From Bacillota bacterium (lineage in GTDB: Bacteria; Bacillota; Sulfobacillia; JAJZYS01; JAJZLH01), in contig JAKAUI010000045.1 of NCBI GenBank assembly GCA_021827745.1, positions 33,563 through 97,562 of the forward strand: a stretch of 64,000 bases of DNA, read 5' to 3'. Numbering within the stretch: the first letter of the stretch is position 1; the number at the start of each line of letters is the position of its first letter. A program made the translations under genes and the position numbers. Shown in pieces: positions 9,664 to 61,844 of this stretch. The notes below the pieces were generated by a model. The model made no database searches and was not told where the DNA came from. It worked only from the letters and a program-made list of their open reading frames with translations.

Positions 9664-9733
9664 CTGCTCCGCCAATCCTGCCCCTCCTGCCCGGGTGTCT
9701 CCAAATTTTCCCATGAGACGGCGATAGGTTTCC

Positions 9734-9778: not shown

Positions 9779-9855
9779 CGGGTGGTGGCGCAGCTTGGTA
9801 GCGCGCTGCGTTCGGGACGCAGAGGTCGCAGGTTCAAATCCTGTCCACCCGACCA
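9779..9855 (+). tRNA. tRNA-Pro (anticodon CGG)
   Basis: 77 nt with a 7-bp acceptor stem (CGGGTGG/CCACCCG), anticodon loop TTCGGGA, T-arm GCAGG TTCAAAT CCTGT, discriminator A and an encoded CCA. Confidence 0.85.
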
Positions 9856-10317: not shown

Positions 10318-11100
10318 CTAGTCGCTTCGGTCGGCGAATTCGCGCATCACCGTCTGGTAGGTGGACGGATACTCCGCCTGATAGCGCAGGTAGTTCGGCA
10401 CCGGGTAGCGGACGCCGCCTTGGTGGCAGCCGGCCAGCCCGAGAACGAACTCGTCCAGCTGGGCGAAGGGCAGCGAAAATGCCATCTCATGGTCCTGAGT
10501 CTGACCGAAGACGCGGTCCCCGTAGCAGGGCAGGATCACCTGCGGCTCACCGGTCAGTCTGGTCCGATTGATGATCTCGGCGCAGTCCGCCCGGGCGCTG
10601 AAGGTCGAGGTCAGGGCCCCGCCCTTGCCGAACAGGGATGCCGCCACCGCCACCATGATCTGGGCCGAGTTGCCGTAGATCGCCACCACCTCCGGCGTGA
10701 AGGTGGCCCGGGCCAGCGGGGCGATCAGGATGGTGCCCGAAGCCTCCGGCTCAATGCCCGCCACCGCCGCCTCAGTCCGCTTGGCCGCAGCCTGGTCCTT
10801 GGCGTACATGCCCTCGGCCAGTCTGCCCGATGCGTAGGTGGCGGTCGGCGTCTCAAACCCGAAGGCCACCTGGGCGATCGGGCAGGAGAGATCGTCTGCG
10901 TCCATCGCCATCGTCCACCCGTAGCGCCGGGCGATCGACACGCCCTGGCAGACGGAGAGCGAGACCCCGAGGTCCCGTTTCGGCCGCCTGGCCTTCTCCG
11001 GGATCTTCTTGGGGTCGCCCTCGACGGCAATAGCCAGGGGAAAGGTGTCGGTCCGCAGGTAGCGCTCGATGGCCTGGGTCGCTTCCTCCAAAGACGGCAT
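10318..11100 (-). CDS. DUF169-family protein
   Basis: 260 aa resembling the uncharacterised DUF169/COG2043 family. The family call is made from memory of the family profile. Confidence 0.5.
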   Translation of the reverse strand: MPSLEEATQAIERYLRTDTFPLAIAVEGDPKKIPEKARRPKRDLGVSLSVCQGVSIARRYGWTMAMDADDLSCPIAQVAFGFETPTATYASGRLAEGMYAKDQAAAKRTEAAVAGIEPEASGTILIAPLARATFTPEVVAIYGNSAQIMVAVAASLFGKGGALTSTFSARADCAEIINRTRLTGEPQVILPCYGDRVFGQTQDHEMAFSLPFAQLDEFVLGLAGCHQGGVRYPVPNYLRYQAEYPSTYQTVMREFADRSD

Positions 11101-11133
11101 GACAACTACCTCCCAGGTCTGTACGGGACAGTC

Positions 11134-11164
11134 AAAAGGGCCTTCGCAGATGCGAAGGCCCTTT
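11134..11164 (-). terminator. Terminator hairpin downstream of the iscA-like gene
   Basis: Palindrome AAAAGGGCCTTCGCAGATGCGAAGGCCCTTT, followed by UUUUG on the minus strand. It could work in either direction. Confidence 0.55.
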
Positions 11165-11190
11165 CCTTGTCGTGTGGGCTGCTGATCCGT

Positions 11191-11541
11191 TCAGCAGTGG
11201 GACGAGACGGCCTTCTCCTGGTCGGTGGTGAAGGAGTGTCCGCAGCCACAGGTCTTGACCGCGTTCGGGTTTTCGATCGTGAAGCCGCTGCCGGACAGTT
11301 CGTCGATGAAGTCGATGGTGGCACCGTTCAAGATGGGCATGCTCTCCGGATCCACCAGCACCTGAACGCCGCCGACCTCGGCCACCGCATCGTCCGCAGT
11401 GCGCTCGTCAAAGGCCATCCCATAGGAATAGCCGGCGCAGCCGCCGCCGGTCACGAAGACGCGCAGCCCCTTGCCTGCTCCGCCCTGCTCCGTCATCAGA
11501 TCCCTGACCTTTTCCGCGGCCTTGTCGGTAATCGTTACCAT
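11191..11541 (-). CDS. Fe-S cluster insertion protein, HesB/IscA/ErpA family
   Basis: 116 aa with the A-type carrier motif (GGGCAGYSY...CGCGHSF) plus a short Cys-containing C-terminal extension. Confidence 0.8.
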   Translation of the reverse strand: MVTITDKAAEKVRDLMTEQGGAGKGLRVFVTGGGCAGYSYGMAFDERTADDAVAEVGGVQVLVDPESMPILNGATIDFIDELSGSGFTIENPNAVKTCGCGHSFTTDQEKAVSSHC

Positions 11542-26746: not shown

Positions 26747-27858
26747 CACGCGCCTCCTCGGCTCAGCCGGACGGCCTCTTCCGCCGCCTGGTCCATGTCT
26801 CGGTACGCCTGAATGCCCTGTTGCTTCAGGATCTCGATCCCGGCCTCTTCGTTGGTGCCGACCAGCCGCACGACGAGCGGAACGGGGATGCCGCGGCTTT
26901 CCTTCACCTGGGTGATCGCTCGGGCGACGTCGTCGCAGCGCGTGATGCCGCCGAAGATGTTGATCAGGATCACCTTTGGCTTCATCTCGATCAGCACCTC
27001 GATCGCCTGGGCGGTGGGCTCCACGCTGGCGCCGCCTCCGGCGTCCAGAAAGTTGGCTGGCTTGCCGCCGAAGTGCTGGACGGCGTCCAAGGTGGCCATG
27101 GACATGCCGGCGCCGTTGGCCATGATCGCCACATCGCCATCCAGCTCCACATAGGCGAGTCCGATGGCGTGGACCTTCTTTTCCAGGGCGGTGCCCTCTT
27201 CGACCATTGGCAGATCGCCGCGGCGGAAGAGGGCGCTGTCGTCGATGTTCAGTCGAGCGTCGGCAGCGATGATCCGCCCAGCACACCTCACGAGCGGGTT
27301 GATCTCGACCAGCTCGGCGTCGGTGCGGCGAAACACGTCGTACAGCTGGCCGACGATCTTGGCCACCTGCTTGGCCTCATCGCCAACGAGCCCCATCTCC
27401 GCCGCGATCTCGCGACAGAGGTAGGCCGGCAGGCCAAACGACAGATCGACATGGCGGCGAACGAGGTCTCGCTCGGCCACGTCCTCGATCTCGACGCCGC
27501 CTTTGGCCGACGCCATGATCAAGGGCTTTCTGGCGCTGCGGTCGACGGTCACGGAGAGGTAGTACTCCGCCTCGACCTCGAGTTTTTGCTCGACGTAGAC
27601 CTGCTTGACCAGGTGGCCCTTCAGGTCCATGCCCAAGATGGCCTTGGCGACCGTCTCGGCCTCGGCTCGATTCTCAGCGAAGCGGATGCCGCCGGCCTTG
27701 CCCCTGCCGCCGACCAGCACCTGGGCCTTCACAGCGGCGGGACCGATCGCCTCTACTGCGGCCACCACCTCGTCCACCGTGGTGGCGAGCCGTCCCTCCG
27801 GCACCGGAATGTTGGCCTGGCGCAGCGCGCCCTTGGCCAGATACTCGTAAAGCCTCAG
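26746..27858 (-). CDS. sucC: Succinyl-CoA synthetase beta subunit
   Basis: ATP-grasp beta subunit. The conserved N-terminus (LYEYLAKGALRQANIPVPEG) lies upstream of the track's GTG start. The only start-like codon at the homologous Met position is a CTG overlapping the maeA TGA (CTGA). Confidence 0.8.
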   Translation of the reverse strand: MRLYEYLAKGALRQANIPVPEGRLATTVDEVVAAVEAIGPAAVKAQVLVGGRGKAGGIRFAENRAEAETVAKAILGMDLKGHLVKQVYVEQKLEVEAEYYLSVTVDRSARKPLIMASAKGGVEIEDVAERDLVRRHVDLSFGLPAYLCREIAAEMGLVGDEAKQVAKIVGQLYDVFRRTDAELVEINPLVRCAGRIIAADARLNIDDSALFRRGDLPMVEEGTALEKKVHAIGLAYVELDGDVAIMANGAGMSMATLDAVQHFGGKPANFLDAGGGASVEPTAQAIEVLIEMKPKVILINIFGGITRCDDVARAITQVKESRGIPVPLVVRLVGTNEEAGIEILKQQGIQAYRDMDQAAEEAVRLSRGGA

Positions 27859-29114
27859 TTCGGTGTCCCTCCTTCTTCCTCTGCCCCAGTCAGTGCGGCG
27901 AGGCGATGTCCGATCTCCTTGGGGTCGAGATCGGTCACCTGGGCCAGCCCCTCGTCGATGGCGGCGCGGGCCACCGCCTCGGCCACCGCCGGCGCCACCT
28001 TGGGATCGAGCGGCGACGGGATGATGTAGTCCGGGCGCAGCTCGTCCCCGACCAGTTCCGAAATGGCCAAGGACGCCGCCCGGTGCATACCGGCGCTGAT
28101 CTGACGGGCCCGCACGTCCAGGGTGCCGCGAAAGACGCCGGGAAAGCCGAGCACGTTGTTGATCTGGTTGGGGAAGTCCGATCGGCCGGTGCCGACCACG
28201 GCGGCGCCGACCTCCAGCGCCTGGACCGGCCAGATCTCCGGCACCGGATTGGCCAGTGCGAAGACGATGGAACCTGGGCGCATGGCCGAGAGCATGTCCA
28301 TGGTGAAGGCGCCGGCGACAGACAGTCCGATCAGCACGTCCGCGCCGCGCACGGCCTCGGCGAGCTCGCCCTGGCGACGGTCCAAGTTGGTGTGCTGTGC
28401 GATCGACTCCTTCTCCTCGTTCAGCTCTGGCCGCCCGCGATAGATGAGGCCGCGGCGGTCGACCAGGGAGAGGTCGTTGACGCCGAGGGCGAGCAGCATG
28501 CGGGCCACGGCGATGCCGGCCGCTCCGGCGCCGTTGATCACGATCCGGACGTCTCCGACCGTCTTGTTGGCCACCCGGACGGCGTTGATGAAGGCGGCGC
28601 CGACCACGATGGCGGTGCCGTGCTGGTCGTCGTTGAAGACGGGGACGGCGAGCGACGCCTGCAGGCGGCGCTCCACGGCGAAGCAGCGCGGGGCGGCAAT
28701 GTCCTCGATGTTGACGCCGCCGAATCCCGGCTCGATCAGCTCCATCACCCGGCAGATGTCGTCGGGATCCTGGCTTCTGACCAGAATCGGAAAGGCATCC
28801 ACGCCGCCGAAGCGCTTGAACAGGACGGCCTTTCCTTCCATCACGGGAAGAGAGGCCTCCGGGCCGATATCGCCCAACCCCAGCACCGCCGACCCGTCGG
28901 TCAGGATGGCGACCTGATTGGCACGGTTCGTGTAGGTGAAGACCTGCTCAGGATGGGCATGAATTTCGCGGCAGGGCTCGGCCACTCCTGGCGTGTAGGA
29001 CAGGGACAGGCCGTCCATGTCGTCCACCGGCATCTTGGCGGCAATCTCGATCTTGCCCCTGTGCTCGCTGTGATAGCGCAGGGCCCGATCGCGGCTCAGC
29101 CAGCGCCGGCTCAG
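27855..29114 (-). CDS. maeA: NAD(P)-dependent malic enzyme
   Basis: ME domains (LSLSYTPGVA, NAD-binding GAGAAG). The conserved N-terminus (ALRYHSEHRGKIEIAAK) lies upstream of the track's ATG. No ATG/GTG/TTG is in frame, and a CTG at 29114 overlaps the mdh TGA. Confidence 0.8.
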   Translation of the reverse strand: MSRRWLSRDRALRYHSEHRGKIEIAAKMPVDDMDGLSLSYTPGVAEPCREIHAHPEQVFTYTNRANQVAILTDGSAVLGLGDIGPEASLPVMEGKAVLFKRFGGVDAFPILVRSQDPDDICRVMELIEPGFGGVNIEDIAAPRCFAVERRLQASLAVPVFNDDQHGTAIVVGAAFINAVRVANKTVGDVRIVINGAGAAGIAVARMLLALGVNDLSLVDRRGLIYRGRPELNEEKESIAQHTNLDRRQGELAEAVRGADVLIGLSVAGAFTMDMLSAMRPGSIVFALANPVPEIWPVQALEVGAAVVGTGRSDFPNQINNVLGFPGVFRGTLDVRARQISAGMHRAASLAISELVGDELRPDYIIPSPLDPKVAPAVAEAVARAAIDEGLAQVTDLDPKEIGHRLAALTGAEEEGGTPN

Positions 29115-31368: not shown

Positions 31369-32859
31369 TCAGAGCTTGATGCTGGGCGTTCCGCTCGGAG
31401 CCACGACGAGCTTGGCCCACATACCGAGCTGGATGTGTCCGGGCACCAGACAGGCGATCACGTAGTTGCCGGCGGTTGTGGCCTTGAAGGTGAAACTGGA
31501 CTTGGCCCCCGGCGCGTCGCCGAGCACCGGGTTCGGCGTTTCGTCTGTGGCTGCAAGCGCCGTGCTCGAGGTCTGCGACGCCGTGATCGCCGCCGAGTGG
31601 TTCAGGCTGCCGTCGTTGGTGAACGCCACATCCAGGGTCCAGCCCTGGGGAATGGTCACCACCATCGCCCCGTTTGCAGCCCCGTTGAAGTTGAACCCTC
31701 CGTTGGTGGTGCCGTAGCCGCCGAGCAGGGTGAGGGTGGCCGTCTTGGTGGCCGCGTTGGTGGAAAGGTAGCTGCTGGCCGCCTGCACCGGTGCGGCGAC
31801 CCCCTGGTTGACGGCCCCCAGATAGGTCAGAACGACGATCGCCGCCACCACGATGCCGCCGGAGTAGACGTAGCCCTTGCGCTCAGATGGCTTGCGGTCG
31901 GGGATCTTGTCGATGAAGGGCAAGAGCACGAGCATCAGGATGCCGATCGTCGGCAGCCCGATGATGCCGAAGGCGTCCAAGGCCGGCGGGATGTACTTCA
32001 AGAGCTGGTAGATGGAGAAGAAGAACCAGAGCGGAATCGGCACGTAGTGGGCCTTGTTCAAGGGGTCGGCGATGGCCAGGAGCGGGGCGTGGAAATTGAT
32101 CGAGAAGTAGAGCAGAGCGGCCGAAAGGATGACCAGGAACATGGTCATCTGAAACACGGTGGTCGGGAAGAAGGTGACGAGCCCCCGCTGCTTCTCCTTG
32201 GGCAGCTTCTCGGCCTCTTCCACCATGGTCAGTTGCTTGCTGAGCACCATGTAGAAGTGAAGCCCGAAGACGAGCAGGAAGAGCGCTGGCAGAACGAGCA
32301 CGTGGATGGCGTAGAAGCGGGTGAGCGTGACCCCGGTGATGTAGGGGCCGCCGCGCATCAGGAGCACGATGTAATAGCCGATCACCGGCATGTAAAAGGG
32401 CATCCAGGTGCCGACCATCGTCGCCCAGTAGGACTGCTGGTCCCAGGGCAAGAGATAGCCGGTGAACGAGAACAAGATGGTGATCAGGAGCAGTCCGACG
32501 CCAGACAGCCAGACCAGTTCCCTAGGCTTGCGGTAGGCGCCGATGTAGTAGCCGCGCAGCATGTGCAGGAAGACCAAGACCACCATGAAGTTGGCGCCCC
32601 AGTAATGCAGGTCCCTGATCAGCCACCCCAGCGGCACCGTGTGCATGATCCGCTGTACGCTCTGGTAGGCGCCGGTGACCGAGGCGTTGTACCAGGTGGC
32701 CAGGATGATGCCTGTGACCACCTGGTTGATGAACACGAAGAGCGTCCCCAGGCCCAGAAAGTCGAGCGGGCTAACTCGGCGCGGCACCCGGTGGTAGAGC
32801 TGAAGATTGATGAACGACCGGATTCCCATCCGGTCGATCACCCAGTTGGCGGGCTTCAA
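31369..32859 (-). CDS. qcrB: Menaquinol-oxidoreductase subunit: cytochrome b6 + subunit IV + C-terminal cupredoxin fusion
   Basis: Two bis-His heme-b helices (HYWGANFMVVLVFLH, HVLVLPALFLLVFGLH), a subunit-IV-like region (PIPLWFFFSIYQLL), and a C-terminal ~150-aa domain with type-1 Cu ligands (...NH..., CLVPGHIQLGM). There is no CxxCH. The likely start is a TTG at 32859 overlapping the qcrA TGA. Confidence 0.8.
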   Translation of the reverse strand: MKPANWVIDRMGIRSFINLQLYHRVPRRVSPLDFLGLGTLFVFINQVVTGIILATWYNASVTGAYQSVQRIMHTVPLGWLIRDLHYWGANFMVVLVFLHMLRGYYIGAYRKPRELVWLSGVGLLLITILFSFTGYLLPWDQQSYWATMVGTWMPFYMPVIGYYIVLLMRGGPYITGVTLTRFYAIHVLVLPALFLLVFGLHFYMVLSKQLTMVEEAEKLPKEKQRGLVTFFPTTVFQMTMFLVILSAALLYFSINFHAPLLAIADPLNKAHYVPIPLWFFFSIYQLLKYIPPALDAFGIIGLPTIGILMLVLLPFIDKIPDRKPSERKGYVYSGGIVVAAIVVLTYLGAVNQGVAAPVQAASSYLSTNAATKTATLTLLGGYGTTNGGFNFNGAANGAMVVTIPQGWTLDVAFTNDGSLNHSAAITASQTSSTALAATDETPNPVLGDAPGAKSSFTFKATTAGNYVIACLVPGHIQLGMWAKLVVAPSGTPSIKL

Positions 32860-33392
32860 TCGATCTGCCCCCCGATGTATACGTTGCCGTTCGCGATCTT
32901 GACCACATGCGGCCACAGGCCCCTAGGCGCCGGCCCTGCGATGTGCTGGCCGTTGGCGTTGTACACAGAGCCGTGGCACGGGCACTGGAACTCCTTCAAG
33001 CTTGAGTTCCACTGCACCGGACACTGCAGATGGGCGCAGTGAAAGTCGAAGGCCTGGATCACGCCAGGCGACTTCTGCCGGACGTAGACACCGTCCGGAA
33101 AGCCGGCGCCCGTGTAGTCGATCAGGGTGTAGTTGTTCGTGAACTTGTTGATCGGTCCGATGTTCTGGAGCTTGCCCAGGGGTCCGCTGGCTGGGAACAG
33201 ATTCTTCAGCGCCAGTCCGAGATAGCCGACGCCGAACAGGCCCATGGCGCCGATCAGGCTGTTTCTCAAGAACTTGCGACGGCCGAGCTCCCGCTCTGCC
33301 CGCCCATCGGCGATGCAGTCGGCACAGACCTCCCCATCGCCGTCCACCGGATTCCCACAGATGCTGCAGCGCAACCTTGTGTCCACCGTCAT
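32856..33392 (-). CDS. qcrA: Rieske [2Fe-2S] protein with N-terminal zinc-ribbon
   Basis: 178 aa with Rieske boxes CAHLQC and CPCHGS, an RRKFL twin-arginine/TM anchor, and an N-terminal CSIC...CADC motif. Confidence 0.85.
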   Translation of the reverse strand: MTVDTRLRCSICGNPVDGDGEVCADCIADGRAERELGRRKFLRNSLIGAMGLFGVGYLGLALKNLFPASGPLGKLQNIGPINKFTNNYTLIDYTGAGFPDGVYVRQKSPGVIQAFDFHCAHLQCPVQWNSSLKEFQCPCHGSVYNANGQHIAGPAPRGLWPHVVKIANGNVYIGGQID

Positions 33393-33460
33393 CGCGCGAT
33401 CCCCCCAAGTCTTGGCAAGATACGCCCTGTGTTGGAACCTGGCCGGTTTAAAGCATCCCG

Positions 33461-33489
33461 ATTGTAGCCTGCGCTCCCAGGTGCGTCAA
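33461..33489 (-). promoter_or_regulatory. Sigma-A-type promoter candidate for qcrA-qcrB
   Basis: TTGACG, a 17-nt spacer, then TACAAT on the minus strand, about 70 nt upstream of the qcrA ATG. A GGGGGG RBS precedes the start. Confidence 0.45.
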
Positions 33490-33567
33490 CCGCGTGGCAA
33501 TGCCCAAAAACCGCTGTGCGTCTGTCTTTCGACGTTCTCAAGAAATCTTTCACAACGTCCTTCCGGC

Positions 33568-34653
33568 TCAGGACACGGCCGTCTCGACCTGCCAAGGGGC
33601 CTCATCCACCGCCTTGGCGAGCAGGCCGAAGACGGCGGCGGACTCGCTCTTGGGATGCGTAAAGACGATCGGCTGACCCAAGTCTCCGCCCTCGGAGATC
33701 GCTGCCTCTACCGGAACCTTGCCCAAGAGCGGCGCCCCCAGCGCCGCCGCCAGCTCCTGGCCTCCCTCGCCGCTGAACAGGCGGGTCGGCTCGCCGCAGG
33801 AGGGACAGCGCAGGTAGGACATGTTCTCGACGACGCCGAGCACGCGCTGGCCCACCTTCTTCGCCATCTCGCCGACCCGCACCGCCACCTTGGACGCCGC
33901 CACCTGCGGCGTGGTGACCAAGAGCACCTGCCCCTGGTGCAGCCGCTGGGCGAGCGTGATGGCAACGTCCCCGGTGCCCGGCGGCGAGTCCACGACCAGA
34001 TAGTCGAGGTCGCCCCACATCACGTCGCCCATGAACTGCTCCAGAAGCTTCGTCAGCATCGGACCCCGCCACATCACGGGCGTACCCTCGTCAACCAGCA
34101 TGCCCATCGAGATCACCTGGACCCCCAGCGACTCCACCGGCAGGATCATGTCGTCGGAGAGCACCACCGGTCTGCGGTCGACGCCGATCATGCGCGGCAC
34201 CGAAAAGCCGTAGATGTCGGCGTCCAACACGCCAACGGCTCGCCCCAGCTGGGCCAGCGCCACGGCCAGATTGACCGCCACGGTCGACTTGCCGACGCCG
34301 CCCTTGCCGGATCCGACGATCAGCACCCGAACCCTAGAGCCTTCCTTCGTCACCGATGAGTGGCGGACGGGGCGGAGCTCCTGGGTCAGCTTCTGACGCT
34401 CCTCTGGCGTCATCACAGAGGTGACGACCGCCACATCGGCGATGCCTTGGACGCCTGCCATGGCCTTTGTCACGTCGCCCTCGATCCGGCCCTTGAGCGG
34501 GCAGCCGGCCGTCGTCAGCTTGACCGCCACCGTCACCTTCTGGCCGTTGACCTGGACGGATTCCACCATGCCGAGCTCGGTCAGCGGCCGGTGCAGCTCC
34601 GGGTCTGTGACCTCGGCGAGCCGCCGCCAGATCTCCTGCTCTTGGTCGGTCAT
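33568..34653 (-). CDS. apbC: Fe-S cluster carrier ATPase Mrp/ApbC (with N-terminal DUF59)
   Basis: 361 aa with the Walker A GKGGVGKST, the C-terminal CPSCGE motif and an N-terminal MIP18/DUF59 region. Confidence 0.85.
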   Translation of the reverse strand: MTDQEQEIWRRLAEVTDPELHRPLTELGMVESVQVNGQKVTVAVKLTTAGCPLKGRIEGDVTKAMAGVQGIADVAVVTSVMTPEERQKLTQELRPVRHSSVTKEGSRVRVLIVGSGKGGVGKSTVAVNLAVALAQLGRAVGVLDADIYGFSVPRMIGVDRRPVVLSDDMILPVESLGVQVISMGMLVDEGTPVMWRGPMLTKLLEQFMGDVMWGDLDYLVVDSPPGTGDVAITLAQRLHQGQVLLVTTPQVAASKVAVRVGEMAKKVGQRVLGVVENMSYLRCPSCGEPTRLFSGEGGQELAAALGAPLLGKVPVEAAISEGGDLGQPIVFTHPKSESAAVFGLLAKAVDEAPWQVETAVS

Positions 34654-35258
34654 GAACTCCGTCTCCTTCCAGGGCCCGTGCTTCGGTTCGGTGTCAGCAT
34701 ACCGCCGGACAAGAGCATTTTCATCGCCTGCTCGACCGTCATGTCGGCCGGCTGCAGGTCATCTGGCGCATAAAAGAGCAGCACGCCGCCGGTCGGGGGG
34801 GCAAAGGGGATAAAGACGCCGACCCGGCCGGCGACCACCTCGTCGCTGACCACGAAGCCGACCACCAGGGATGCCGGACCAGGGTAGGGAGCGAGCACCA
34901 CGGCCCGAAACGCGCTGTTGGCATCGGGATCGAACAGGACCTTCAGCACCTGCTTCGATCCCTCGTACACCACCCGGATCACCGGCACCCGGCTCAGCAC
35001 CAATTCCACGAGCCGCACCAGCTGCTGGCCCATGATATTGCTGACCAGAAGACCGAACAGCGTGATCACGATCAGAGTCAGGATCAGGCCAAGGCCGGGG
35101 AAGCGGATGCCAGCTGGCAAGAGCAGACCCAGTCCGTCGAAGAAGACCAGGACCTTGTCGGCGACGTAGAGCGCCAGGGCCACCGGCAAAATGGCCGCCA
35201 GGCCGGTCAGAAAGTAGTGCCTGATCTGGCGCCAGACATGGCGGCTGTGGTCTTGCAT
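34650..35258 (-). CDS. DUF502-family membrane protein
   Basis: 202 aa with an N-terminus (RQIRHYFLTGLAAILPVALALYV) typical of COG2928/DUF502. Confidence 0.6.
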   Translation of the reverse strand: MQDHSRHVWRQIRHYFLTGLAAILPVALALYVADKVLVFFDGLGLLLPAGIRFPGLGLILTLIVITLFGLLVSNIMGQQLVRLVELVLSRVPVIRVVYEGSKQVLKVLFDPDANSAFRAVVLAPYPGPASLVVGFVVSDEVVAGRVGVFIPFAPPTGGVLLFYAPDDLQPADMTVEQAMKMLLSGGMLTPNRSTGPGRRRSS

Positions 35259-35310
35259 GGTCTACCCCTCGCTCGACTGATCGGTACGCAGATCGCGGTG
35301 CTGTGCCTGG

Positions 35311-35406
35311 TGGCGGGAGCAGGTAGGAATCGAACCTACCGCGGACGCGACGCGCCCGCCATTGGATTTGAAGTCCAAGGGGGACACCAGCCCCACCTCT
35401 GCCCCC
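35311..35406 (-). tRNA. selC: tRNA-Sec (selC), anticodon UCA
   Basis: 96 nt with an 8-bp acceptor stem (GGGGGCAG/CTGCTCCC), anticodon arm TTGGA-CTTCAAA-TCCAA matching the E. coli selC loop, a long GC-rich variable arm, T-arm GGTAGG-TTCGATT-CCTACC, discriminator G and an encoded CCA. Confidence 0.85.
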
Positions 35407-35467
35407 ACATCGACGGGTCTCCACCAACGCCAGCCTAGTTTAGCAGACACGCTGACCCTCATCTGCG

Positions 35468-36229
35468 TCATTCCTCGGCAGGAGGCTCTTCGTCTGAGTC
35501 CTCGGGCGGCTCGTTCCGTCGCCTCTGGCGCTCGGCCAGCGCCGAGAGCCACACTCCGACCTCGTATAGGACCAGCATCGGACTCGCCAGCACCAGCATC
35601 GACATCAGGTCCGGCGGCGCAAAGGCGGCGGCCAGCACAAAGATGATGAAGATGGCCATCCGCCGCTTCTGGCGAAGCCAGTGCGCAGAGATCAGGCCCA
35701 GCCGGGTCAGCGCCATCACGACCAACGGGAATTCGAAGACGATGGCCAGGGGGAGCATCAGGCCAATGATGAAATCGACGTAACTGCTGTAGGTGATCAT
35801 CGGGTGCACGACCGGTCCCGTGAAAGAAAACAGGAAGCGAAAGACGACCGGCGCAAACACGAAGAAGGCGAAGGCGGCCCCGGCCCAGAGCAGAAAGAGC
35901 GCAGCCGGAGCATAGGAAATGACCAGGTGGCGCTCTTCTCGGGTCAGCCCGGGCCAGACGAAGGCGGCCACCTCATAGATCAGAAGCGGCGAGGTTACGA
36001 TCAGGGCCGCCACCAAAGAGGCCTGAATGTAGGTGAAAAAGAGCTCCGAGGGACTGATGAAGATGAGTTCCTTGATCCGACCGCCGGTGGCCAGGAGCAG
36101 AAACTGGGTCAGGCCGGTGGCATGAAAGAAGAACCAGACCGCCACCGGCAGAAACACGACCAGATACGTGATGATGCGGTTGCGCAGCTCTCCCAGATGC
36201 CCTTCCAGCTGCAGCAGCGGCCGGCTCAT
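35468..36229 (-). CDS. tatC: Sec-independent protein translocase TatC
   Basis: 253 aa with 6 TMS and TatC-family conserved segments, plus an acidic C-terminal tail. Confidence 0.9.
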   Translation of the reverse strand: MSRPLLQLEGHLGELRNRIITYLVVFLPVAVWFFFHATGLTQFLLLATGGRIKELIFISPSELFFTYIQASLVAALIVTSPLLIYEVAAFVWPGLTREERHLVISYAPAALFLLWAGAAFAFFVFAPVVFRFLFSFTGPVVHPMITYSSYVDFIIGLMLPLAIVFEFPLVVMALTRLGLISAHWLRQKRRMAIFIIFVLAAAFAPPDLMSMLVLASPMLVLYEVGVWLSALAERQRRRNEPPEDSDEEPPAEE

Positions 36230-36690
36230 CGGCCGTCAGGCCCGGCCAGAAGCGGCTGGATCACCTGTCGATAGACGACCCGGGCATCGCGCTCAGCGAT
36301 CTGGAGGCAGCCCGGAGGCGCCGCGCCGGCCACCACCGCCAAGAGACCAGGCAAGTCAGGCGGACAGCCTGGGCCGACCCAGACCTTGGGGCCGGGATAC
36401 TCCTTGATGCCCTCCACCAGCACGAGGCGCGTCGATGGAGGGAGGCGGCGTCTGGCGTCGTCCAGACTCGGGGCTCGCGCCATCTCCAGCACGCCGTCTT
36501 GGGCCAAGAGAACGGTCGGCGTCCCGGTCGCAAACAGTCGGGCCGAATCCTTGCGCTCCGGGCTCAGCCCGCCATGGTGGTGCTTGATGGCGGCGACCTG
36601 CACCCGATCTCGCTGCAAGAGTGCGATCAGGCCGAGGATCAAGGTGGTCTTGCCGGAACCGGACGGACCGACCACGTGCAGTTCGGTCAT
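36226..36690 (-). CDS. mobB: Molybdopterin-guanine dinucleotide biosynthesis adapter MobB
   Basis: From the internal Met (MTELHVVGPSGSGKTTL), a P-loop protein of about 154 aa. The track ORF is over-extended. The ATG overlaps the moeA stop (ATGA). Confidence 0.8.
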   Translation of the reverse strand: MTELHVVGPSGSGKTTLILGLIALLQRDRVQVAAIKHHHGGLSPERKDSARLFATGTPTVLLAQDGVLEMARAPSLDDARRRLPPSTRLVLVEGIKEYPGPKVWVGPGCPPDLPGLLAVVAGAAPPGCLQIAERDARVVYRQVIQPLLAGPDGR

Positions 36691-37916
36691 CGGCCGCCCC
36701 AGTGTGCGATCCACACCGGAACAACTGACCCGGCCCGGATCCGGCCTTGACCCGGTTCCGAGCGCACCCAGGCATCTAGCTGGCGCAGGGCGGAAACGGC
36801 TCCCGATCCGCCGTATGACGCCGGGCGCACCTCCAGCCGTCCGTCGTCCAGGCCGAGCTCGGCCGGCCAAAATCTCGGCACCTTGCCCCGATTCGGCGGC
36901 AGCGCTGCTTTGAGATACGCCTGCGCCGATCTGGCCTCGCAGCCACGGCCCTCCATCGCCGCCAGCAGCGGCCGCACCAGTCGGTCAAAGCCAAGGGCGG
37001 TGGCGAGAGGGTTTCCGGGCAGGGCAATCCAGAGGGCGTGTCCGCCAGAAAACGCCTGCAACGGCTGCCCTGGACGCATCAAGAGGCCGTCGACCAGGGT
37101 GCGCCGGCCAAGGCGCGCGGACACCCGACGCACGAAGTCGCGCGGTCCCTTTGAGGCCCCACCGGTGGTGAGCAATAGATCGCACAGCGAGTCCAGCCTG
37201 CGCACCTCCGCCTCAAAGCGGGCCTCGTCGTCGCCGAGGGTCAGGCTGATCACCTCACATCCCAGGGCCACCAGCTGCTGAGCCATCCAGGGGCCGTTGG
37301 TGTTGCGGACCATCCCGGGACCAAACGCGCCCTCTTCCACCAACTCGGAGCCGACCGACAAGACGGCAACCGTCACTGGCCGCCGGACGCTGACCTCGCT
37401 TACCCCGGTGGCGCGCAAGAGCGCCAGCTGGCCGGGCCCCAGTCGCTCGCCGCGGCCAAGGATGCTCGCTCCCTTGCGCACCTCTTCGCCGACGTGCCGC
37501 ACATTGTCCCCTGGCCTGGGCCAGTGGCGAAGCACGACCATCTGCCCCTCCACCGTCACCTCTTCCTGCCAGGCCACACCTGCGTCGGCGGGCACCACGG
37601 CTCCGGTGGCCACAAACAGGGCCTGGCCGGGGCCCAGGGTCGGCGCCGGACCGTCGCCAGCGTACAGCCGGCCGATCAGCGCACAGCTCTGACGGCTTTC
37701 TCCGACGACGGCAAAACCGTCGACGGCCGAGGTCTCAAAGGCGGGCAGAGGGTTTAGAGCCCGCATGCCCTGCGCGGCCACCCGTCCCAGAGCCTGGTCC
37801 AGGCCGATCCGCTCCACGCCCTGCCTCGGGGCGTGACTGGCCAGGATCTCTTCGGCTTGCTCCGGGCTCAGCCGTTCCATCGCCACGGACTTGCACCTTC
37901 CGCCTGCGCCATCCAT
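36687..37916 (-). CDS. moeA: Molybdopterin molybdenumtransferase MoeA
   Basis: About 400 aa with MoeA N-terminal, MoCF-binding and C-terminal regions. The start is probably the internal Met (MERLSPEQAEEIL) near 37880. Confidence 0.85.
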   Translation of the reverse strand: MDGAGGRCKSVAMERLSPEQAEEILASHAPRQGVERIGLDQALGRVAAQGMRALNPLPAFETSAVDGFAVVGESRQSCALIGRLYAGDGPAPTLGPGQALFVATGAVVPADAGVAWQEEVTVEGQMVVLRHWPRPGDNVRHVGEEVRKGASILGRGERLGPGQLALLRATGVSEVSVRRPVTVAVLSVGSELVEEGAFGPGMVRNTNGPWMAQQLVALGCEVISLTLGDDEARFEAEVRRLDSLCDLLLTTGGASKGPRDFVRRVSARLGRRTLVDGLLMRPGQPLQAFSGGHALWIALPGNPLATALGFDRLVRPLLAAMEGRGCEARSAQAYLKAALPPNRGKVPRFWPAELGLDDGRLEVRPASYGGSGAVSALRQLDAWVRSEPGQGRIRAGSVVPVWIAHWGGR

Positions 37917-38881
37917 TCCAGCAGCCCGCCCACGCCAAGGTCCGCCACCTGGTCGGCCGTCGGGACTTCCCCGGCCAGCACCCTGGGCAGTAAGAGGTCA
38001 AACACGGTGACCGGATCGGCGATCACGCAGGCCGGGAGCCCTAAGATCGGCTTATCGCCGTGCACGGCCACGATCGCCATCGAACCTGGCAGGACCGGCG
38101 TCCCATGGCAGATCAGGCGGGCGCCGCTGTCCTGGATGGCGCCGGGCGTGCGGTCATCGGGATCGACCGACATCCCGCCGCTGACCAGGATGATGTCCAC
38201 CTTGGGGTCGGCTGCGGCTGCTGCGATGGCGTGGGCAATGAGGGAGCGGTCATCTGGCAAGAGGGCGTGGCGGACGATGCGGGCACCGAAAGGATGGAGC
38301 TTTGACTCCACCCGGGGCCGAAAGGCATCTGTGATCTTGCCGCTGAACACCTCCTGACCGGTGGTCAGGAGCGCAACCCCGAGCTGGCTGAAGGGCCTGA
38401 CCCGCAGCACCGCACCGTAGCTCACGGCGCGCTCGACCACCGCCTCCTCGACGAGCAGCGGCACACACTTGACCGCCGCCACCCGCTCTTGGCGGTGGAC
38501 CGGCATCCGGTCCGGCCTGGTCACGACGAGGATCTGGCCCTGTCCGTTCAGCGCCCTGATCGCCTCCGTGTTCAGCTGCAACAGGCCGTCGTGCGCTGCC
38601 CGCAGGGTCACCTTTCCCTCTTCGGGCCCTTCGGCCTCGAGTCCGCCGCCGGCCAGGGCGCTGGCTGCCCGGCTGGCGGCGTCCTGCTCGTGCACGAGTC
38701 CGTCTGCTTGCTCCCAGACGAACAGGTGCTCTTTGCCCATGGCCCGCAGGACGGGCAGATCGGCCTCCGCCACCACATGACCGCGCTGAAAGCGCACGCC
38801 CTTGAACTGGCCGGGAATGACCTGGGTCAGATCATGGCCGAGCGTCAGACCCACGGCCTCGGACAGCGGCACCTCACGCAT
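37868..38881 (-). CDS. MoeA-N/MoCF-domain molybdopterin-binding protein (MoeA paralog)
   Basis: From the internal Met (MREVPLSEAVGLTLGHDLTQ), about 337 aa with a MoeA-N-like region plus a MoCF biosynthesis domain. The upstream 100 aa of the track ORF are overlap artefact. Confidence 0.65.
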   Translation of the reverse strand: MREVPLSEAVGLTLGHDLTQVIPGQFKGVRFQRGHVVAEADLPVLRAMGKEHLFVWEQADGLVHEQDAASRAASALAGGGLEAEGPEEGKVTLRAAHDGLLQLNTEAIRALNGQGQILVVTRPDRMPVHRQERVAAVKCVPLLVEEAVVERAVSYGAVLRVRPFSQLGVALLTTGQEVFSGKITDAFRPRVESKLHPFGARIVRHALLPDDRSLIAHAIAAAAADPKVDIILVSGGMSVDPDDRTPGAIQDSGARLICHGTPVLPGSMAIVAVHGDKPILGLPACVIADPVTVFDLLLPRVLAGEVPTADQVADLGVGGLLEWMAQAEGASPWRWNG

Positions 38882-39479
38882 GGTTCCCCTCCGCTCCAAC
38901 GAGCCTGCGGTAGTCATCCGGGTGGTTGACGTTGGTGAAGATGGTGGCATCGAGCCCCAGTCTGGCCAGGTCCTGGTCGTCCAGCCGCCGCACGTTGATC
39001 TGGCTGACAAAGGCCTCCATGCTGGGTCGATCCGAGCTGACCGTCGCCTCGGCCACCGCGAGCGCCGACTGTCGGTACAGGGCCGCGAGGGGCTGAATGC
39101 CGGCAGCCCGCCCCAAATAGAGCGCCCCATCGAGTCCGTCTTCGGTCGCAAGCAGCTCTTCGATGAACCGCCTGGGCACATGGGGCAGGTCGCAGGCCAT
39201 CACCAGCACATCACCCTCGCGCAGGGCTGCCGCCAGCCCGGCCAGTGGCCCGCGCCCTGGGGCGATGTCCAAAAGCTGGCGACCCGGCCAAGGCCGCCTT
39301 GAGCTGCCGACGAACACGACCTCTTTGGTCAGGGGAGCGAGACGGTCCGCTGCGCTCTCGGCCAGGGTCTTGCCGTCATACGGCAAAGTCGCCTTGTCCT
39401 GGCCCATGCGCACGCTGTGCCCGCCGACCAAGACGGCGCCGAGCGGACGCTCGTCGGCAACTGGTGGCTTGGCTCCCAT
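38874..39479 (-). CDS. mobA: Molybdenum cofactor guanylyltransferase MobA
   Basis: 201 aa with the MobA N-terminus (GAVLVGGHSVRMGQDK). Confidence 0.8.
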   Translation of the reverse strand: MGAKPPVADERPLGAVLVGGHSVRMGQDKATLPYDGKTLAESAADRLAPLTKEVVFVGSSRRPWPGRQLLDIAPGRGPLAGLAAALREGDVLVMACDLPHVPRRFIEELLATEDGLDGALYLGRAAGIQPLAALYRQSALAVAEATVSSDRPSMEAFVSQINVRRLDDQDLARLGLDATIFTNVNHPDDYRRLVGAEGNHA

Positions 39480-50711: not shown

Positions 50712-51329
50712 TCAGTGCACCTTTTGCATCAGGTAGACCACCGTGAAGATGATCACCCAGACCACGTCCACGAAGTGCCAGTAGAGACCGGCGATCCACA
50801 CCTTGGACGTGTTGGCCGGCGTGATCCCGTCTTTGAAGGAATAGACGAGCAAAGAGATGATCCAGAACAGCCCGAAGGCCACGTGCAGACCATGGAAGCC
50901 GACCAGGGCGTAGAAGGCGGAGGCGGAGGCGCTGGCCCCCATCGTGAAGCCAGACGCCATGTAGTGGGTGAACTCGAAGATCTGTAGGTCGAGGAAGATG
51001 GCGCCGAGCAGCGCCGTCACCCACAGCCAGATCTTCATCGCCTGCAGCTCGCCCTTGTTCATGGCCAAGAAGGCAAAGACCATGGTCAGGCTGCTCGAAA
51101 GCAAGGACAAGGTCATCACGCCGGTGAGCGGCAGGTCGATCAAAGACGCCAGGGTCACGGCTCCGGCGGTGTGGGTGTCGAGCGACAGGTAGGTGCCGAT
51201 CAGGGCGGCGAAGAAGGCGCACTCTCCAGACAGGAAAATCCAAAAACCGAGCACCCGGTTGTCCTGCGCCTTGGCCTGTTCCGGGGTCTGCCCCGGCTGG
51301 GCGGGCACAAGCTCATGGCTCCCGATCAT
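50712..51329 (-). CDS. ctaE: Cytochrome c oxidase subunit III
   Basis: 205 aa with COX3 conserved helices (FWIFLSGECAFFAALIGTY..., GLYWHFVDVVWVIIF). Confidence 0.9.
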   Translation of the reverse strand: MIGSHELVPAQPGQTPEQAKAQDNRVLGFWIFLSGECAFFAALIGTYLSLDTHTAGAVTLASLIDLPLTGVMTLSLLSSSLTMVFAFLAMNKGELQAMKIWLWVTALLGAIFLDLQIFEFTHYMASGFTMGASASASAFYALVGFHGLHVAFGLFWIISLLVYSFKDGITPANTSKVWIAGLYWHFVDVVWVIIFTVVYLMQKVH

Positions 51330-53212
51330 TCGCCCGCACCCCCGACCGGCTGGACAATCTCGCCCGGGTCTTCGTCCACGATCATGCGATGGATAGAGAA
51401 GAAGGCCAAGGCGAGGCCGATTGCCACCAAAAGGAGCAGGCCGAAGATGGCGCCGTATCCGGCGATGGTCAACCCCAGTGCGATCAGGAACGGGAAGATG
51501 GACCCGGTCGGCAGGTGGATGCCATGCGCATGATGGGCGCTCTCCCCGTCTTGCTCAGGCTCGGCCGATCTCAGCTGTCCATCGCCTTCCGTCTTCTCCA
51601 CCCACCAGGCGTCGCGGCCGCGCACGAGCGGCGTCTTGGCAAAGTTGTAGACCGGAGCTGGCGACTCGGTCGCCCACTCCAGGGCGCGCCCATCCCAGGG
51701 GTCAGGCCCCGCCCGCTCTCCGGATTTGAGCGATTTGATCAGGTTGTAGAAGAAGAAGAGGAACGAGATGGCCAGGATGAAGGCTCCAATCGTCGCCACC
51801 AGGTTCCAGAAGGCGACAGCCTGACCCATGGCGGCCGAATAGGTGGCCACCCGCCGGGGCATGCCGAGCAGGCCGAGAAAGTGCATCGGGAAGAACGTGA
51901 CGTTGAAGCCGATCATCATCAGCCAGAAGTGCCACTTGCCGAGCGTCTCATTGAGCAGGCGGCCGGTGATCTTGGGGAACCAGTAGTAGGCCCCGGCCAG
52001 CACGCCCATCAGAGAGCCGCCGATCAGCACGTAATGCAGGTGGGCGACCACGAAGTAGGAGTCGTTGTACTGGAAGTCGGCTGGCGCCATCGCCAGCATC
52101 ACGCCGCTGATCCCTCCGATCACGAACAGCGGGATGAAGCCGGTGGCGAACAGCATGGCGGTCGTGAATTTGATCTTGCCGCCCCACATCGTGAAGATCC
52201 AATTGAAGATCTTCACCCCGGTCGGCACGGCGATGGCCAGCGTGGTGATGGCAAAGAGCGAGTTCACATAGGGCCCGAACCCGTCCACGAACATGTGGTG
52301 CACCCACACCGTGAAGGCCAGGAAGCCGATGGCGATGGTGGCCAGCACCATCGAGTCATAGCCGAAGATCGTCTTCCGCGAGAAGGTGGCGATCACCTCG
52401 GAGATGATGCCAAAGGCCGGCAGAATCAGGATGTAGACCTCTGGATGGCCGAAGATCCAAAACAGGTGCTGCCAAAGCAGGACGTTTCCGCCCTTCAGGA
52501 TGTTGAAGAAGTTGGCGCCCATCAGGCGATCGAACATCAGGAGGAACAGGTTCACGGTGAAGGGCGGGAAGGCGAACAGGATCAGGACCGACGTGACAAA
52601 CGTGGTCCAGGTGAACAGCGGCATCCGCATCAGACTCATACCGGGCGCCCGGTTGTTGATGATCGTGGCGATGAAGTTGACTCCGGTCATCAGCGTCCCG
52701 ATACCGGCCAGTTGCAGGCCGATGTCGTAGAAATCGATGCCCGGGCCCGGGTTGAACGGCGTCAGGCTGATCGGCGCGTAGTTGAACCAGCCGGCGTTGG
52801 GCGCCCCACCCAAGAACCAGCTGGAGTTCAGCAAGATGCCGCCAAGCACGAACAGCCACAGGCTCAGCGCGTTCAGCCGCGGAAAGGCCACATCCCTGGC
52901 CCCGATCTGCAGGGGCACAATGCAGTTGATGAAGCCGATGAAGAGCGGCATCACGGCCAGAAAGATCATGGTGGTGCCGTGCATCGTGAACAGTTGGTCA
53001 TAGAGCGCAGGGGTGACAAAGGTGTTGCCGGGAGAAGACAGCTGGATGCGGATCATCAGCGCCTCGATGCCGCCGACGCCAAAGAAGAAGGTGGCGGCGA
53101 GCAGGTACATGATGCCGATCCGCTTATGGTCGGCAGTCGTCAGCCAGCTCATCAGGTAGCTCTGGCTGCGCTGTCGACCCTTGGTTCCGACGAGCTCAGC
53201 GACCGCTGCCAT
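51326..53212 (-). CDS. ctaD: Cytochrome c oxidase subunit I (heme-copper oxidase, A-type)
   Basis: 628 aa with 12+ TMS, heme a/a3-CuB His ligands and D- and K-channel motifs ([34 protein letters not shown]). Confidence 0.95.
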   Translation of the reverse strand: [628 protein letters not shown]

Positions 53213-60215: not shown

Positions 60216-60834
60216 CCAGGTCCCTCCCCAGATCGATTGTCACCTGGCGACCGTTGACGCTCAGGCGCTCATTCAGCATCCAGCCGAGCGCCGTCACGAC
60301 GCCCTGTTGCTCCAAAGGCGCCACCCGCTCTCTCAGGTCCTGCCAATCATCTCCCGGTAGGACGGCGACCGTGTCTTGCCACACGATCGGGCCCCCGTCC
60401 ACCGCATCGCTGACCAGGTGGACGGTGACGCCCGTGACCTTCACGCCGTGGGCCAGCGCCTGGCCGATGCCATCGCGGCCGGGGAAGGCGGGCAACAGGG
60501 AGGGATGGACGTTGAGCGCCCGATTGGCGTACCGCCGAACCAGTGCGGTGCCAAGCCGGCTCATGTATCCGGCCAGCACGAGATGACTGATGCGCTGTCC
60601 TCTGAGCGCCGCCTCCACCTGCCGCTCGCGCTGCTCCCAAGGTGCCTTCGTCCGGTCGGCGACGACCGTGGGGAGGCCCTGGGCCTGCGCCCAGTCCACC
60701 GCCGGGCACTGCCGGTCCGCCACGACCAGTGTGAGCTCGCAGCTCAGCTCTTGAGCCGAGACGGCGGCGAAGACCGCCCGCAGGATGCTGCCCTGTCCGG
60801 AACAGAACACGGCCAGCCGGCCCGTCACTGCCAT
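60187..60834 (-). CDS. purN: Phosphoribosylglycinamide formyltransferase
   Basis: 215 aa with formyl-transferase motifs (LAVFCSGQGS, NVHPSLLP). Confidence 0.85.
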   Translation of the reverse strand: MAVTGRLAVFCSGQGSILRAVFAAVSAQELSCELTLVVADRQCPAVDWAQAQGLPTVVADRTKAPWEQRERQVEAALRGQRISHLVLAGYMSRLGTALVRRYANRALNVHPSLLPAFPGRDGIGQALAHGVKVTGVTVHLVSDAVDGGPIVWQDTVAVLPGDDWQDLRERVAPLEQQGVVTALGWMLNERLSVNGRQVTIDLGRDLDAGSDFDLR

Positions 60835-61844
60835 CTGACAGCCCGCTCCCCCGCTTCGATCCAGCCGATCTCGAACGCCCGCTCTCCCGAGGCGGCCAGT
60901 ACCGCAAGGATCTGTTCCGCCGCCTCGGCCGGCGCCACCAGCAGAAATCCGATGCCGAGGTTGAAGACGTGGCGCACCGCCTCGTGGCTGAGATGGGCGG
61001 TCTCACGGATGAACCGAACGAGTGCGGGCTCTGCCCAACGGGTCTGGTCAATCACCGCCCGACAGCCGCCCGGCAGGATGCGCACGAGGTTTCCGCCGAT
61101 GCCGCCGCCCGTCACATGGGCCAGTCCGCTCAGCGGCAGGGCGAGCACGTCGTGGACCGCCCCCACGTAGATGCGGGTTGGCGAAAGAAGCTCTGTACCG
61201 AGACTTGGCAGGCCCTGGGCGCGGGGTGCGCTCAGGTCCAGCTTGAAGTCACGGACGATCTTTCGGATCAGGGTGTAGCCGTTGGCGTGAAAGCCGTCAC
61301 TCGCGATCCCGATCACCTTGTGGCCGGGACGGATCGCCTCGCCGGAGATGATGCGCTCTTTCGATACCGCCCCCACGGCGAAGCCTGCCAGATCCAAAAC
61401 CCCCGGCCGCAGCATGTCCGGGAGCTCGGCTGTCTCGCCGCCCAAGAGGGCGCACCCGGCCTGGCGACATCCTCTGGCCACGCTGGCCACCACCTCGCCG
61501 GCCTGCTCGGGATCGAGCCGGTCGACGGCCAGGTAGTCGAGCACAAACAGCGGTCTCGCCCCGACCGTCAGGACGTCGTTCACGACCATCGCCACGAGAT
61601 CGATCCCGATGTCGGAGAAGGCGCTGAGCTCGCTCGCCAAGAGGAGCTTGCTACCAACGCCGTCGGCGCCAGCCACCAGCACCTCGCCCGTCCCCCCACT
61701 CAGGGCGAACAGGCCGGCGAAATGCCCGATCCCGCCCACCACCTCCGGTCGCCAGGCGACGCCGGCCGCCTGCTGATAGCGGCGGACGGCCTCGTCTGAG
61801 GCGTCGATGTCGACGCCGGCCCTGCGGTAGACGTCGTCGCTCAC
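60825..61844 (-). CDS. purM: Phosphoribosylformylglycinamidine cyclo-ligase (AIR synthase)
   Basis: 339 aa with the PurM N-terminus (YRRAGVDIDA) and AIRS domains. The ATG overlaps the purF stop (ATGA). Confidence 0.9.
   Translation of the reverse strand: MSDDVYRRAGVDIDASDEAVRRYQQAAGVAWRPEVVGGIGHFAGLFALSGGTGEVLVAGADGVGSKLLLASELSAFSDIGIDLVAMVVNDVLTVGARPLFVLDYLAVDRLDPEQAGEVVASVARGCRQAGCALLGGETAELPDMLRPGVLDLAGFAVGAVSKERIISGEAIRPGHKVIGIASDGFHANGYTLIRKIVRDFKLDLSAPRAQGLPSLGTELLSPTRIYVGAVHDVLALPLSGLAHVTGGGIGGNLVRILPGGCRAVIDQTRWAEPALVRFIRETAHLSHEAVRHVFNLGIGFLLVAPAEAAEQILAVLAASGERAFEIGWIEAGERAVRWQ

Follow-up and report, generated by a model that had tools for sequence, protein, structure and literature searches.

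Does the position of a selenocysteine tRNA gene tell us anything about the selenoprotein that the tRNA serves? The question is raised by a locus in which the tRNA-Sec gene, selC, lies between a gene for a DUF502 protein and tatC, next to genes for the molybdopterin cofactor and 25.6 kb away from selB. It brings with it a second question, namely whether the selenocysteine (Sec) system to which selC and selB belong is functional in the host. We considered both in a stretch of DNA of 64,000 nucleotides, here called the window, which has 67% G+C and carries nearly all of its genes on the minus strand. The host is a high-GC Bacillota population, and exact copies of its TatC, RelA and PurN sequences are also present in the MAGs GCA_027344545.1 and GCA_027420065.1, in sibling assemblies and in ENA/Logan assemblies, on contigs of up to 362 kb. 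The best explanation, to which we assign a probability of about 0.88, is that a functional and canonical selC occupies an inherited, conserved slot, with the rest of the Sec pathway encoded elsewhere in the genome.

ARAGORN places two tRNA genes in the window, a tRNA-Pro(CGG) at 9779-9855 on the plus strand and a tRNA-SeC of 96 nt at 35311-35406 on the minus strand, the latter with anticodon tca at position 36. The Rfam family RF01852 matches 35315-35406 of the minus strand with 72.7 bits (E = 5.8e-13; the gathering cutoff is 47 bits) over model positions 1-91 of 91. Under the Rfam overlap rule this match is retained and a weaker one from the same clan is discarded. The two programs agree with the first-pass annotation, in which a tRNA-Sec had been assigned to this strand and interval.

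The fold was read directly, base pair by base pair. The acceptor stem has 8 bp, from G1-C to G8-C, with one G.U pair, and is followed by a two-base linker. The D arm consists of five standard pairs, an internal U.C mismatch and a closing G11-C28 pair, with the 4 nt loop UGGU. The anticodon stem has 5 bp with C.U at the sixth position, and its loop, CUUCAAA, presents the UCA anticodon. The variable arm is formed by 8 bp and a 3 nt loop, the T stem by 5 bp with the loop UUCGAUU; the discriminator base is G73 and CCA is encoded. The UCA anticodon loop (CTTCAAA in the DNA) and the 8/5 architecture of the acceptor and T stems had been put forward earlier, and the pairing bears them out.

Bacterial tRNA-Sec is distinguished by an 8/5 fold with a 13 bp acceptor-T helix, a very long variable arm and G73, together with a D stem of 6 bp closed by a 4 nt loop, and CCA is encoded in 93% of the bacterial genes (PMC5330540). 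Every one of these structural hallmarks is present in the window gene: the acceptor and T stems form a 13 bp helix in the bacterial 8+5 arrangement, the 6 bp D stem with its 4 nt loop is there with a single internal U.C mismatch, the variable arm is long, G73 is in place and the length of 96 nt lies within the range of 90-101 nt. The gene is a genuine, canonical bacterial tRNA-Sec gene, a member of RF01852 by all criteria examined, and it belongs to an already known class, with nothing novel in kind.

The UCA anticodon, taken with the long variable arm, might also suggest a tRNA of the serine or leucine type or an opal suppressor, and G73 is common to tRNA-Ser. That one of these has been mistaken for tRNA-Sec is barely conceivable, however. 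Features peculiar to tRNA-Sec are the 8+5 helix of 13 bp, the extended D stem with its 4 nt loop and the length of 96 nt (PMC5330540); RF01852 is kept at 72.7 bits over the match from the same clan, and a dedicated SelB is encoded nearby.

Two further observations concern the same interval. Public gene calls place a 66-residue ORF over selC in all assemblies of the population (L084 3768-3968, corresponding to window 35262-35462), which is almost certainly spurious. The possibility that selC has served as an integration site for a genomic island was considered and rejected, since the 3' end of the tRNA has no second copy in the window (three mismatches or fewer) and the neighbouring genes are housekeeping genes.

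To obtain the gene map, about 60 ORFs were scanned with Pfam and NCBIfam. It starts with relA/spoT, apt, recJ, a LapA-domain gene, secF, secD and selB, beyond which come the plus-strand tRNA-Pro, a NUDIX gene, a DUF169 gene, iscA, dapB and other housekeeping genes. The middle part holds a hem cluster, sucCD, the malic enzyme gene, mdh and icd. Ahead of selC on the map are genes for a cytochrome b-sulfocyanin fusion, a Rieske protein, an Mrp/NUBPL ATPase and the DUF502 protein; after it follow tatC, mobB, moeA, a MoCF-domain gene, mobA, groEL/ES and further housekeeping genes, and the map ends with caa3 oxidase genes and the pur operon.

Two details of this map deserve a record of their own. 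In sucC (window 27804-27860, minus strand) the first ATG, GTG or TTG in frame comes only after the codons for the conserved N-terminus, LYEYLAK. The only plausible start is a CTG that follows a perfect AAGGAGG by 8 nt, an indication that sucC uses the rare CTG initiation codon. Cytochrome oxidase subunit I is a single ORF of 628 residues in the window (51326-53212) and in sibling assemblies, while in L098 (17623-19484; GCA_027420215.1) it is divided into two ORFs of 211 and 409 residues, probably through an assembly error or a strain-level frameshift.

The immediate surroundings of selC consist of two blocks, both on the minus strand. tatC (35468-36229) is recognized by Pfam as TatC and by TIGR00945 with 166 bits against a cutoff of 133, and selC lies 61 nt downstream of it on the same strand. 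Upstream of tatC is a block devoted to the molybdopterin-guanine-dinucleotide cofactor (Moco block; 36226-39479, assigned with Pfam and NCBIfam and with boundaries from public gene calls), which comprises mobB (36226-36690), moeA (36687-37880), the MoCF-domain gene (37868-38881) and mobA (38874-39479). The block on the other side of selC (31369-35258, from Pfam) comprises the DUF502 gene (34650-35258) and the genes for the Mrp/NUBPL-type ATPase, the Rieske protein and the cytochrome b-sulfocyanin fusion. The position of selC between DUF502 and tatC-mobB-moeA-mobA is as first described, with the extra MoCF-domain gene to be inserted between moeA and mobA.

The Rieske protein, encoded two genes downstream of selC, contains the segment ...GRRKFLRNSL..., with a textbook twin-arginine motif (RRKFL), and ahead of this motif it has an N-terminal CxxC...CxxC stretch. 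The cytochrome b encoded beside it (31369-33392, minus strand) ends in a cupredoxin domain of the sulfocyanin/SoxE type, and the block recurs in two related contigs, L102 and L104. In a Bacillota, a bc-type complex with a cytochrome b-sulfocyanin fusion and such a Rieske protein has an unusual architecture.

The first-pass annotation had taken the position of selC, and the dispersed layout of the sel genes, to point to a Tat-exported, selenocysteine-containing molybdoenzyme encoded elsewhere. Stated fully, the idea is that selC, tatC, mobB, moeA and mobA make up a functional module for a Tat-exported molybdopterin selenoenzyme (a formate dehydrogenase of the periplasmic type). The 61 nt spacing and common strand of tatC and selC speak in its favour. 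Formate dehydrogenase needs the bis-MGD cofactor, which is made with the help of MobA and MobB. Its FdhA subunit is moreover the commonest bacterial selenoprotein (PMC1794560).

To see what becomes of this arrangement in relatives, TatC homologues and their contigs (L100, L101, L102, L104 and L094) were compared with the window. The order tatC-selC-DUF502 is the same in L100 and L101, whose TatC sequences are 84 and 78% identical to that of the window, and in L102 (53%) selC still lies in the interval between tatC and DUF502, both points being in keeping with a module. In L102, however, selC is flanked by an ABC-transporter gene and a DAO gene, both on the opposite strand, which part it from tatC and DUF502. 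The two remaining loci keep the genes and have no tRNA-Sec that either ARAGORN or Rfam could find: L104 (TatC 51% identical) has mobA-moeA-mobB-tatC and, further on, DAO-DUF502-mrp-Rieske, and L094 (56%) has mobA-MoCF-moeA-tatC. The Moco block is conserved in L102 too, and since L094 and L104 retain the Moco-tatC block without a tRNA-Sec, the block is a stable unit with or without selC. The downstream block (DUF502-mrp-Rieske-cytochrome b) is likewise conserved in L102 and L104.

The tRNA gene itself has been maintained more strictly than its surroundings. In L100 and L101 it is identical to that of the window but for one base of the variable loop, while on either side of it the spacers have diverged and are of altered length. 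In L102 the stem changes are compensated, with U-A replaced by C-G in the anticodon stem, A-U by G-C in the T stem and G.U by A-U in the acceptor stem, and the C.U at the sixth position of the anticodon stem recurs. The window clade, L100 and L101 have the same D arm, of which several positions have changed in L102 (G13 to A and C25 to G among them). Among 20 tRNA-Sec genes from the fetched loci, compensatory double changes occur in 23 of the 30 consensus pairs. The selC tRNA is under purifying selection.

A further element bears on whether selC depends on its neighbours. On the minus strand at 35437-35445, 30 nt upstream of the 5' end of the tRNA, is TGCTAAACT, which resembles an extended -10 element and is a putative promoter belonging to selC. 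The window, L100 and L101 share the pattern GTCTGCTA[A/C]ACT unchanged, within a spacer that otherwise diverges, and the motif can be read as TG-n-TAAACT. It is absent from L102, and a consensus promoter scan returned no full -35/-10 site. Because the motif is invariant in the three closest lineages, it suggests that selC has its own promoter.

Set against these observations, the module for a Tat-exported selenoenzyme appears improbable. L094 and L104 have the Moco-tatC block but no selC, genes on the opposite strand intervene in L102 and selC is accompanied by its own conserved -10-like motif. The Rieske protein carries a twin-arginine motif, so tatC already has a local client. Neither the window nor its flanks, some 81 kb in total, contain a molybdopterin oxidoreductase gene, and within that distance no fdhA with a twin-arginine signal and an in-frame UGA is linked to selC, tatC or the Moco genes. 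Justice et al. described the Sec-containing formate dehydrogenases of Sulfobacillus as putatively cytoplasmic and syntenic with NuoEFG-like genes (PMC4378227). Of the cultured lineages represented in the fetched SelB loci, Sulfobacillus is the nearest, and it shares the selB synteny discussed below. The adjacency of selC and tatC gives no real support for a Tat-exported Sec enzyme. We consider it very probable that selC occupies a boundary slot between two conserved housekeeping blocks, and that its position reflects inherited synteny with no operon-level link to the Tat or Moco genes.

We turn to the second component. selB, for the Sec-specific elongation factor, occupies 7801-9714 on the minus strand. 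Its product scores 359.5 bits against the TIGR00475 equivalog (cutoff 242.25) over profile positions 1-576 of 581. The Pfam domains GTP_EFTU, Beta-barrel_SelB and SelB-wing_3 are above their gathering cut-offs, and SelB-wing_2 falls slightly under its own (20.0 bits against 22.3). The protein belongs to TIGR00475 and has a GTPase resembling EF-Tu and a winged-helix C-terminus. Translation probably starts at the TTG at 9675 rather than at the ATG at 9714, because the TTG is preceded by GGAGGGG and yields the 624 residues reported by public gene calls.

The most similar SelB sequences come from two Bacillota MAGs, L004 and L005, with 78 and 65% identity, and all others are at most 45% identical. 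The dN/dS ratio of selB is 0.18 against L004 and 0.30 against L005, values comparable with those of the neighbouring recJ; selB is intact and under purifying selection. The gene lies upstream of secD, secF and recJ, with a NUDIX gene and the tRNA-Pro(CGG) just upstream of it. This tRNA, identified by ARAGORN and Rfam and divergent from selB, serves as a syntenic marker of the locus. L005 and Sulfobacillus harzensis (L023) preserve the order selB-secD-secF-(lapA)-recJ-apt-relA together with the divergent tRNA-Pro(CGG) upstream of it. The gene order in L004 is the same, and its contig starts 146 nt upstream of selB, so that the tRNA-Pro region lies outside it. L022 retains, of that arrangement, the tRNA-Pro(CGG) upstream of selB alone. 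The placing of selB within a secDF-recJ cluster, at a distance of 25.6 kb from selC, is as first described.

How unusual is such a separation? The layout was counted at the 34 SelB loci for which a full 10 kb was available on both sides. selA lies within 10 kb of selB at 20 of these loci and selD at 25, while selC is that close at nine and more than 10 kb away at the other 25. At six loci, from unrelated taxa, selB has neither selA, selD nor selC within 10 kb. In the majority of loci selC is far from selB, and a selB standing alone is a minority arrangement that recurs regularly. The separation of selB from selA is one that the window clade shares with L005, L022 and S. harzensis. The dispersed layout, like the position of selC, therefore fails as a pointer to a Tat-exported molybdoenzyme, given that selC is remote from selB at 25 of 34 loci. 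As a separate observation, an Acidobacteriota MAG (L062) has two tRNA-Sec genes (3782-3877 and 8455-8548), 4.6 kb apart on the same strand and near selA and selB.

The other sel genes were sought in the window and its surroundings. tblastn with E. coli SelA and SelD detected neither gene in the window, the sole match being PurM with 25% identity; the two queries are validated by strong matches in 51 and 42, respectively, of 80 SelB-bearing loci. The sequence that adjoins the window, some 10 kb to its left and some 7 kb to its right, contains dtd, an ADH gene, the suf operon, purEBCSQL and cytochrome b-like genes, and in window and flanks together, about 81 kb, there is no selA, selD or selenoprotein gene. 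The AIRS-family matches in the window and flanks are purM and purL only. One of these, the gene at 60825-61844, was considered as a selD candidate and rejected, as it is purM (TIGR00878, 355.6 bits) inside the pur operon. In passing, we note a divergent cluster next to the pur operon, about 7 kb past the right end of the window (L097 1-1775), which encodes a 49-residue ORF, a cytochrome b/DUF4405-like protein of 207 residues and a protein of 312 residues that has no Pfam match.

Selenoprotein genes were sought with a screen for in-frame TGA codons with coding-type codon bias on both sides, and with a second, relaxed screen for short extensions. Each gave two cases in the window, and all four are junctions of adjacent genes. 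An MFS-TGA-TrxR-like junction at 23444 is an ordinary boundary of adjacent or overlapping genes, and the short C-terminal extensions suggested at 34652 and 13544 are ordinary gene junctions as well. The remaining case called for closer attention, as the selenoprotein families already known include the HesB-like proteins (PMC1794560): the IscA/HesB gene at 11191-11541 ends in a TGA from which the reading frame runs on into the downstream DUF169 gene. This TGA is a plain stop. IscA has its full set of three cysteines, L005 does not keep the frame beyond the TGA, the DUF169 gene has its own GGAGG (SD) and ATG, and the TGA is followed by a terminator with a G+C hairpin and a T-run, which L005 retains with a compensatory change. 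In this intrinsic terminator the change between the lineages replaces a G:C pair of the stem by A:T. The IscA/HesB-like protein also has a conserved C-terminal tail of 12 residues, ...(S/H)SHC, before the TGA (window 11100-11230, minus strand; L005 8410-8600). With tblastn, NCBIfam and the TGA screens in agreement, the earlier statement that the window has no selA, selD or selenoprotein gene stands.

The SelA of the population was also sought in larger collections. A Clostridia SelA query against 5.8 billion proteins returned, among the matches listed, only relatives of the query, none with high-GC composition. A search of representatives at 50% identity, filtered by composition and by cluster sources, gave candidates. 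Of the 270 or more SelA proteins listed, about 110 had a high-GC-like composition, and roughly 60 of these lacked a check of source, neighbours or contig. Several candidates were set aside. The closest named relatives of P0154 are from Armatimonadota, P0349 comes from GCA_040364295.1 with a sigma-54 activator on its contig and P0383 is from TARA ocean scaffolds; P0323 and its relatives, one of them labelled Firmicutes bacterium, were put aside on composition and contig count.

These results might be taken to mean that selC and selB are relics, orphaned machinery that survived the loss of selA, selD and the selenoprotein genes, with the tRNA non-functional or repurposed. The lack of those genes over about 81 kb would be expected in that case, and among the SelA matches listed none was traced to the host population; selA, moreover, adjoins selB in most other genomes (20 of the 34 full-flank loci). 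We regard a relic as very improbable all the same. selB is intact and under purifying selection, and the tRNA is conserved, with compensated changes in a relative whose TatC is as little as 53% identical. At six of the 34 loci, in unrelated taxa, selB stands without another sel gene within 10 kb, and the failure to trace a SelA to the host among the matches listed is no proof of absence. Romero et al. regarded selB with selC as the signature of Sec decoding, and in their survey of genomes the pair always coincided with selA, selD and selenoproteins (PMC1273633). An equally slender chance attaches to the idea that the clade keeps selC and selB in the absence of selA and selD as an orphan or repurposed UGA-decoding pair, one that inserts, for example, serine or cysteine at UGA.

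The selection on selB, the compensation in selC and the signature value of the pair (PMC1273633) lead us instead to infer, with high confidence, that the Sec system is functional in the host; the activity of the pathway and the presence of selA and selD are part of that inference. On this functional reading the selC transcript would probably arise from its own extended -10 promoter and have its 5' end trimmed by RNase P. The tRNA would then be charged with serine by SerRS, according to the established bacterial pathway, and SelA would convert Ser-tRNA to Sec-tRNA-Sec with selenophosphate supplied by SelD. SelB, encoded 25 kb away, would deliver Sec-tRNA-Sec to in-frame UGA codons that have a SECIS hairpin downstream. 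The genes for SelA, SelD and the selenoproteins would lie elsewhere in the genome. Of 75 bacteria that use Sec, 67 were found to have formate dehydrogenase (PMC1794560), and it is reasonable to take its alpha subunit as the likeliest selenoprotein, and thus the presumed target, in this host.

The window encodes a caa3 oxidase and a Rieske/cytochrome b complex. An uncultured, apparently aerobic lineage of high-GC Bacillota can now be said to carry the signature genes of Sec decoding. In annotating the MAGs of this host, one should be prepared for an in-frame TGA that breaks up at least one gene, probably fdhA and possibly selD; beyond annotation the importance of the locus is small. It does offer a caution against inferring function from the neighbours of a tRNA gene, since the Moco-tatC block is independent of selC.

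It remains to compare the system with those already known. The type example of RF01852 is E. coli selC, and the window tRNA has the same UCA anticodon in a CUUCAAA loop, the same 8/5 fold, extended D stem with a 4 nt loop and long variable arm, and likewise G73, an encoded CCA and 96 nt. It differs only in details, the U.C of the D stem, the C.U at the sixth position of the anticodon stem and the G.U of the acceptor stem, and is still within the family. Where Sulfobacillus is concerned, a cytoplasmic Sec formate dehydrogenase has been described (PMC4378227), and the likeness of the window lies in the synteny of selB: S. harzensis shares the order selB-secD-secF-recJ-apt-relA with tRNA-Pro(CGG) upstream, although its SelB is only about 38% identical.

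Many Bacillota and Actinomycetota have the same components in compact clusters, selC-selD-selA-selB or selD-selA-selB-selC; in L079, for instance, selC, selD, selA and selB stand in a row. In the window clade such a set is split up, with selB beside secDF and selC between tatC and DUF502. In E. coli, selC is apart from selAB and selD is elsewhere. The window resembles this dispersed layout in that selC is unlinked to selB, and departs from it in that selB is also apart from selA, which is a minority arrangement. By analogy, the system appears to work according to the E. coli paradigm, its departures being organisational only and common to related lineages.
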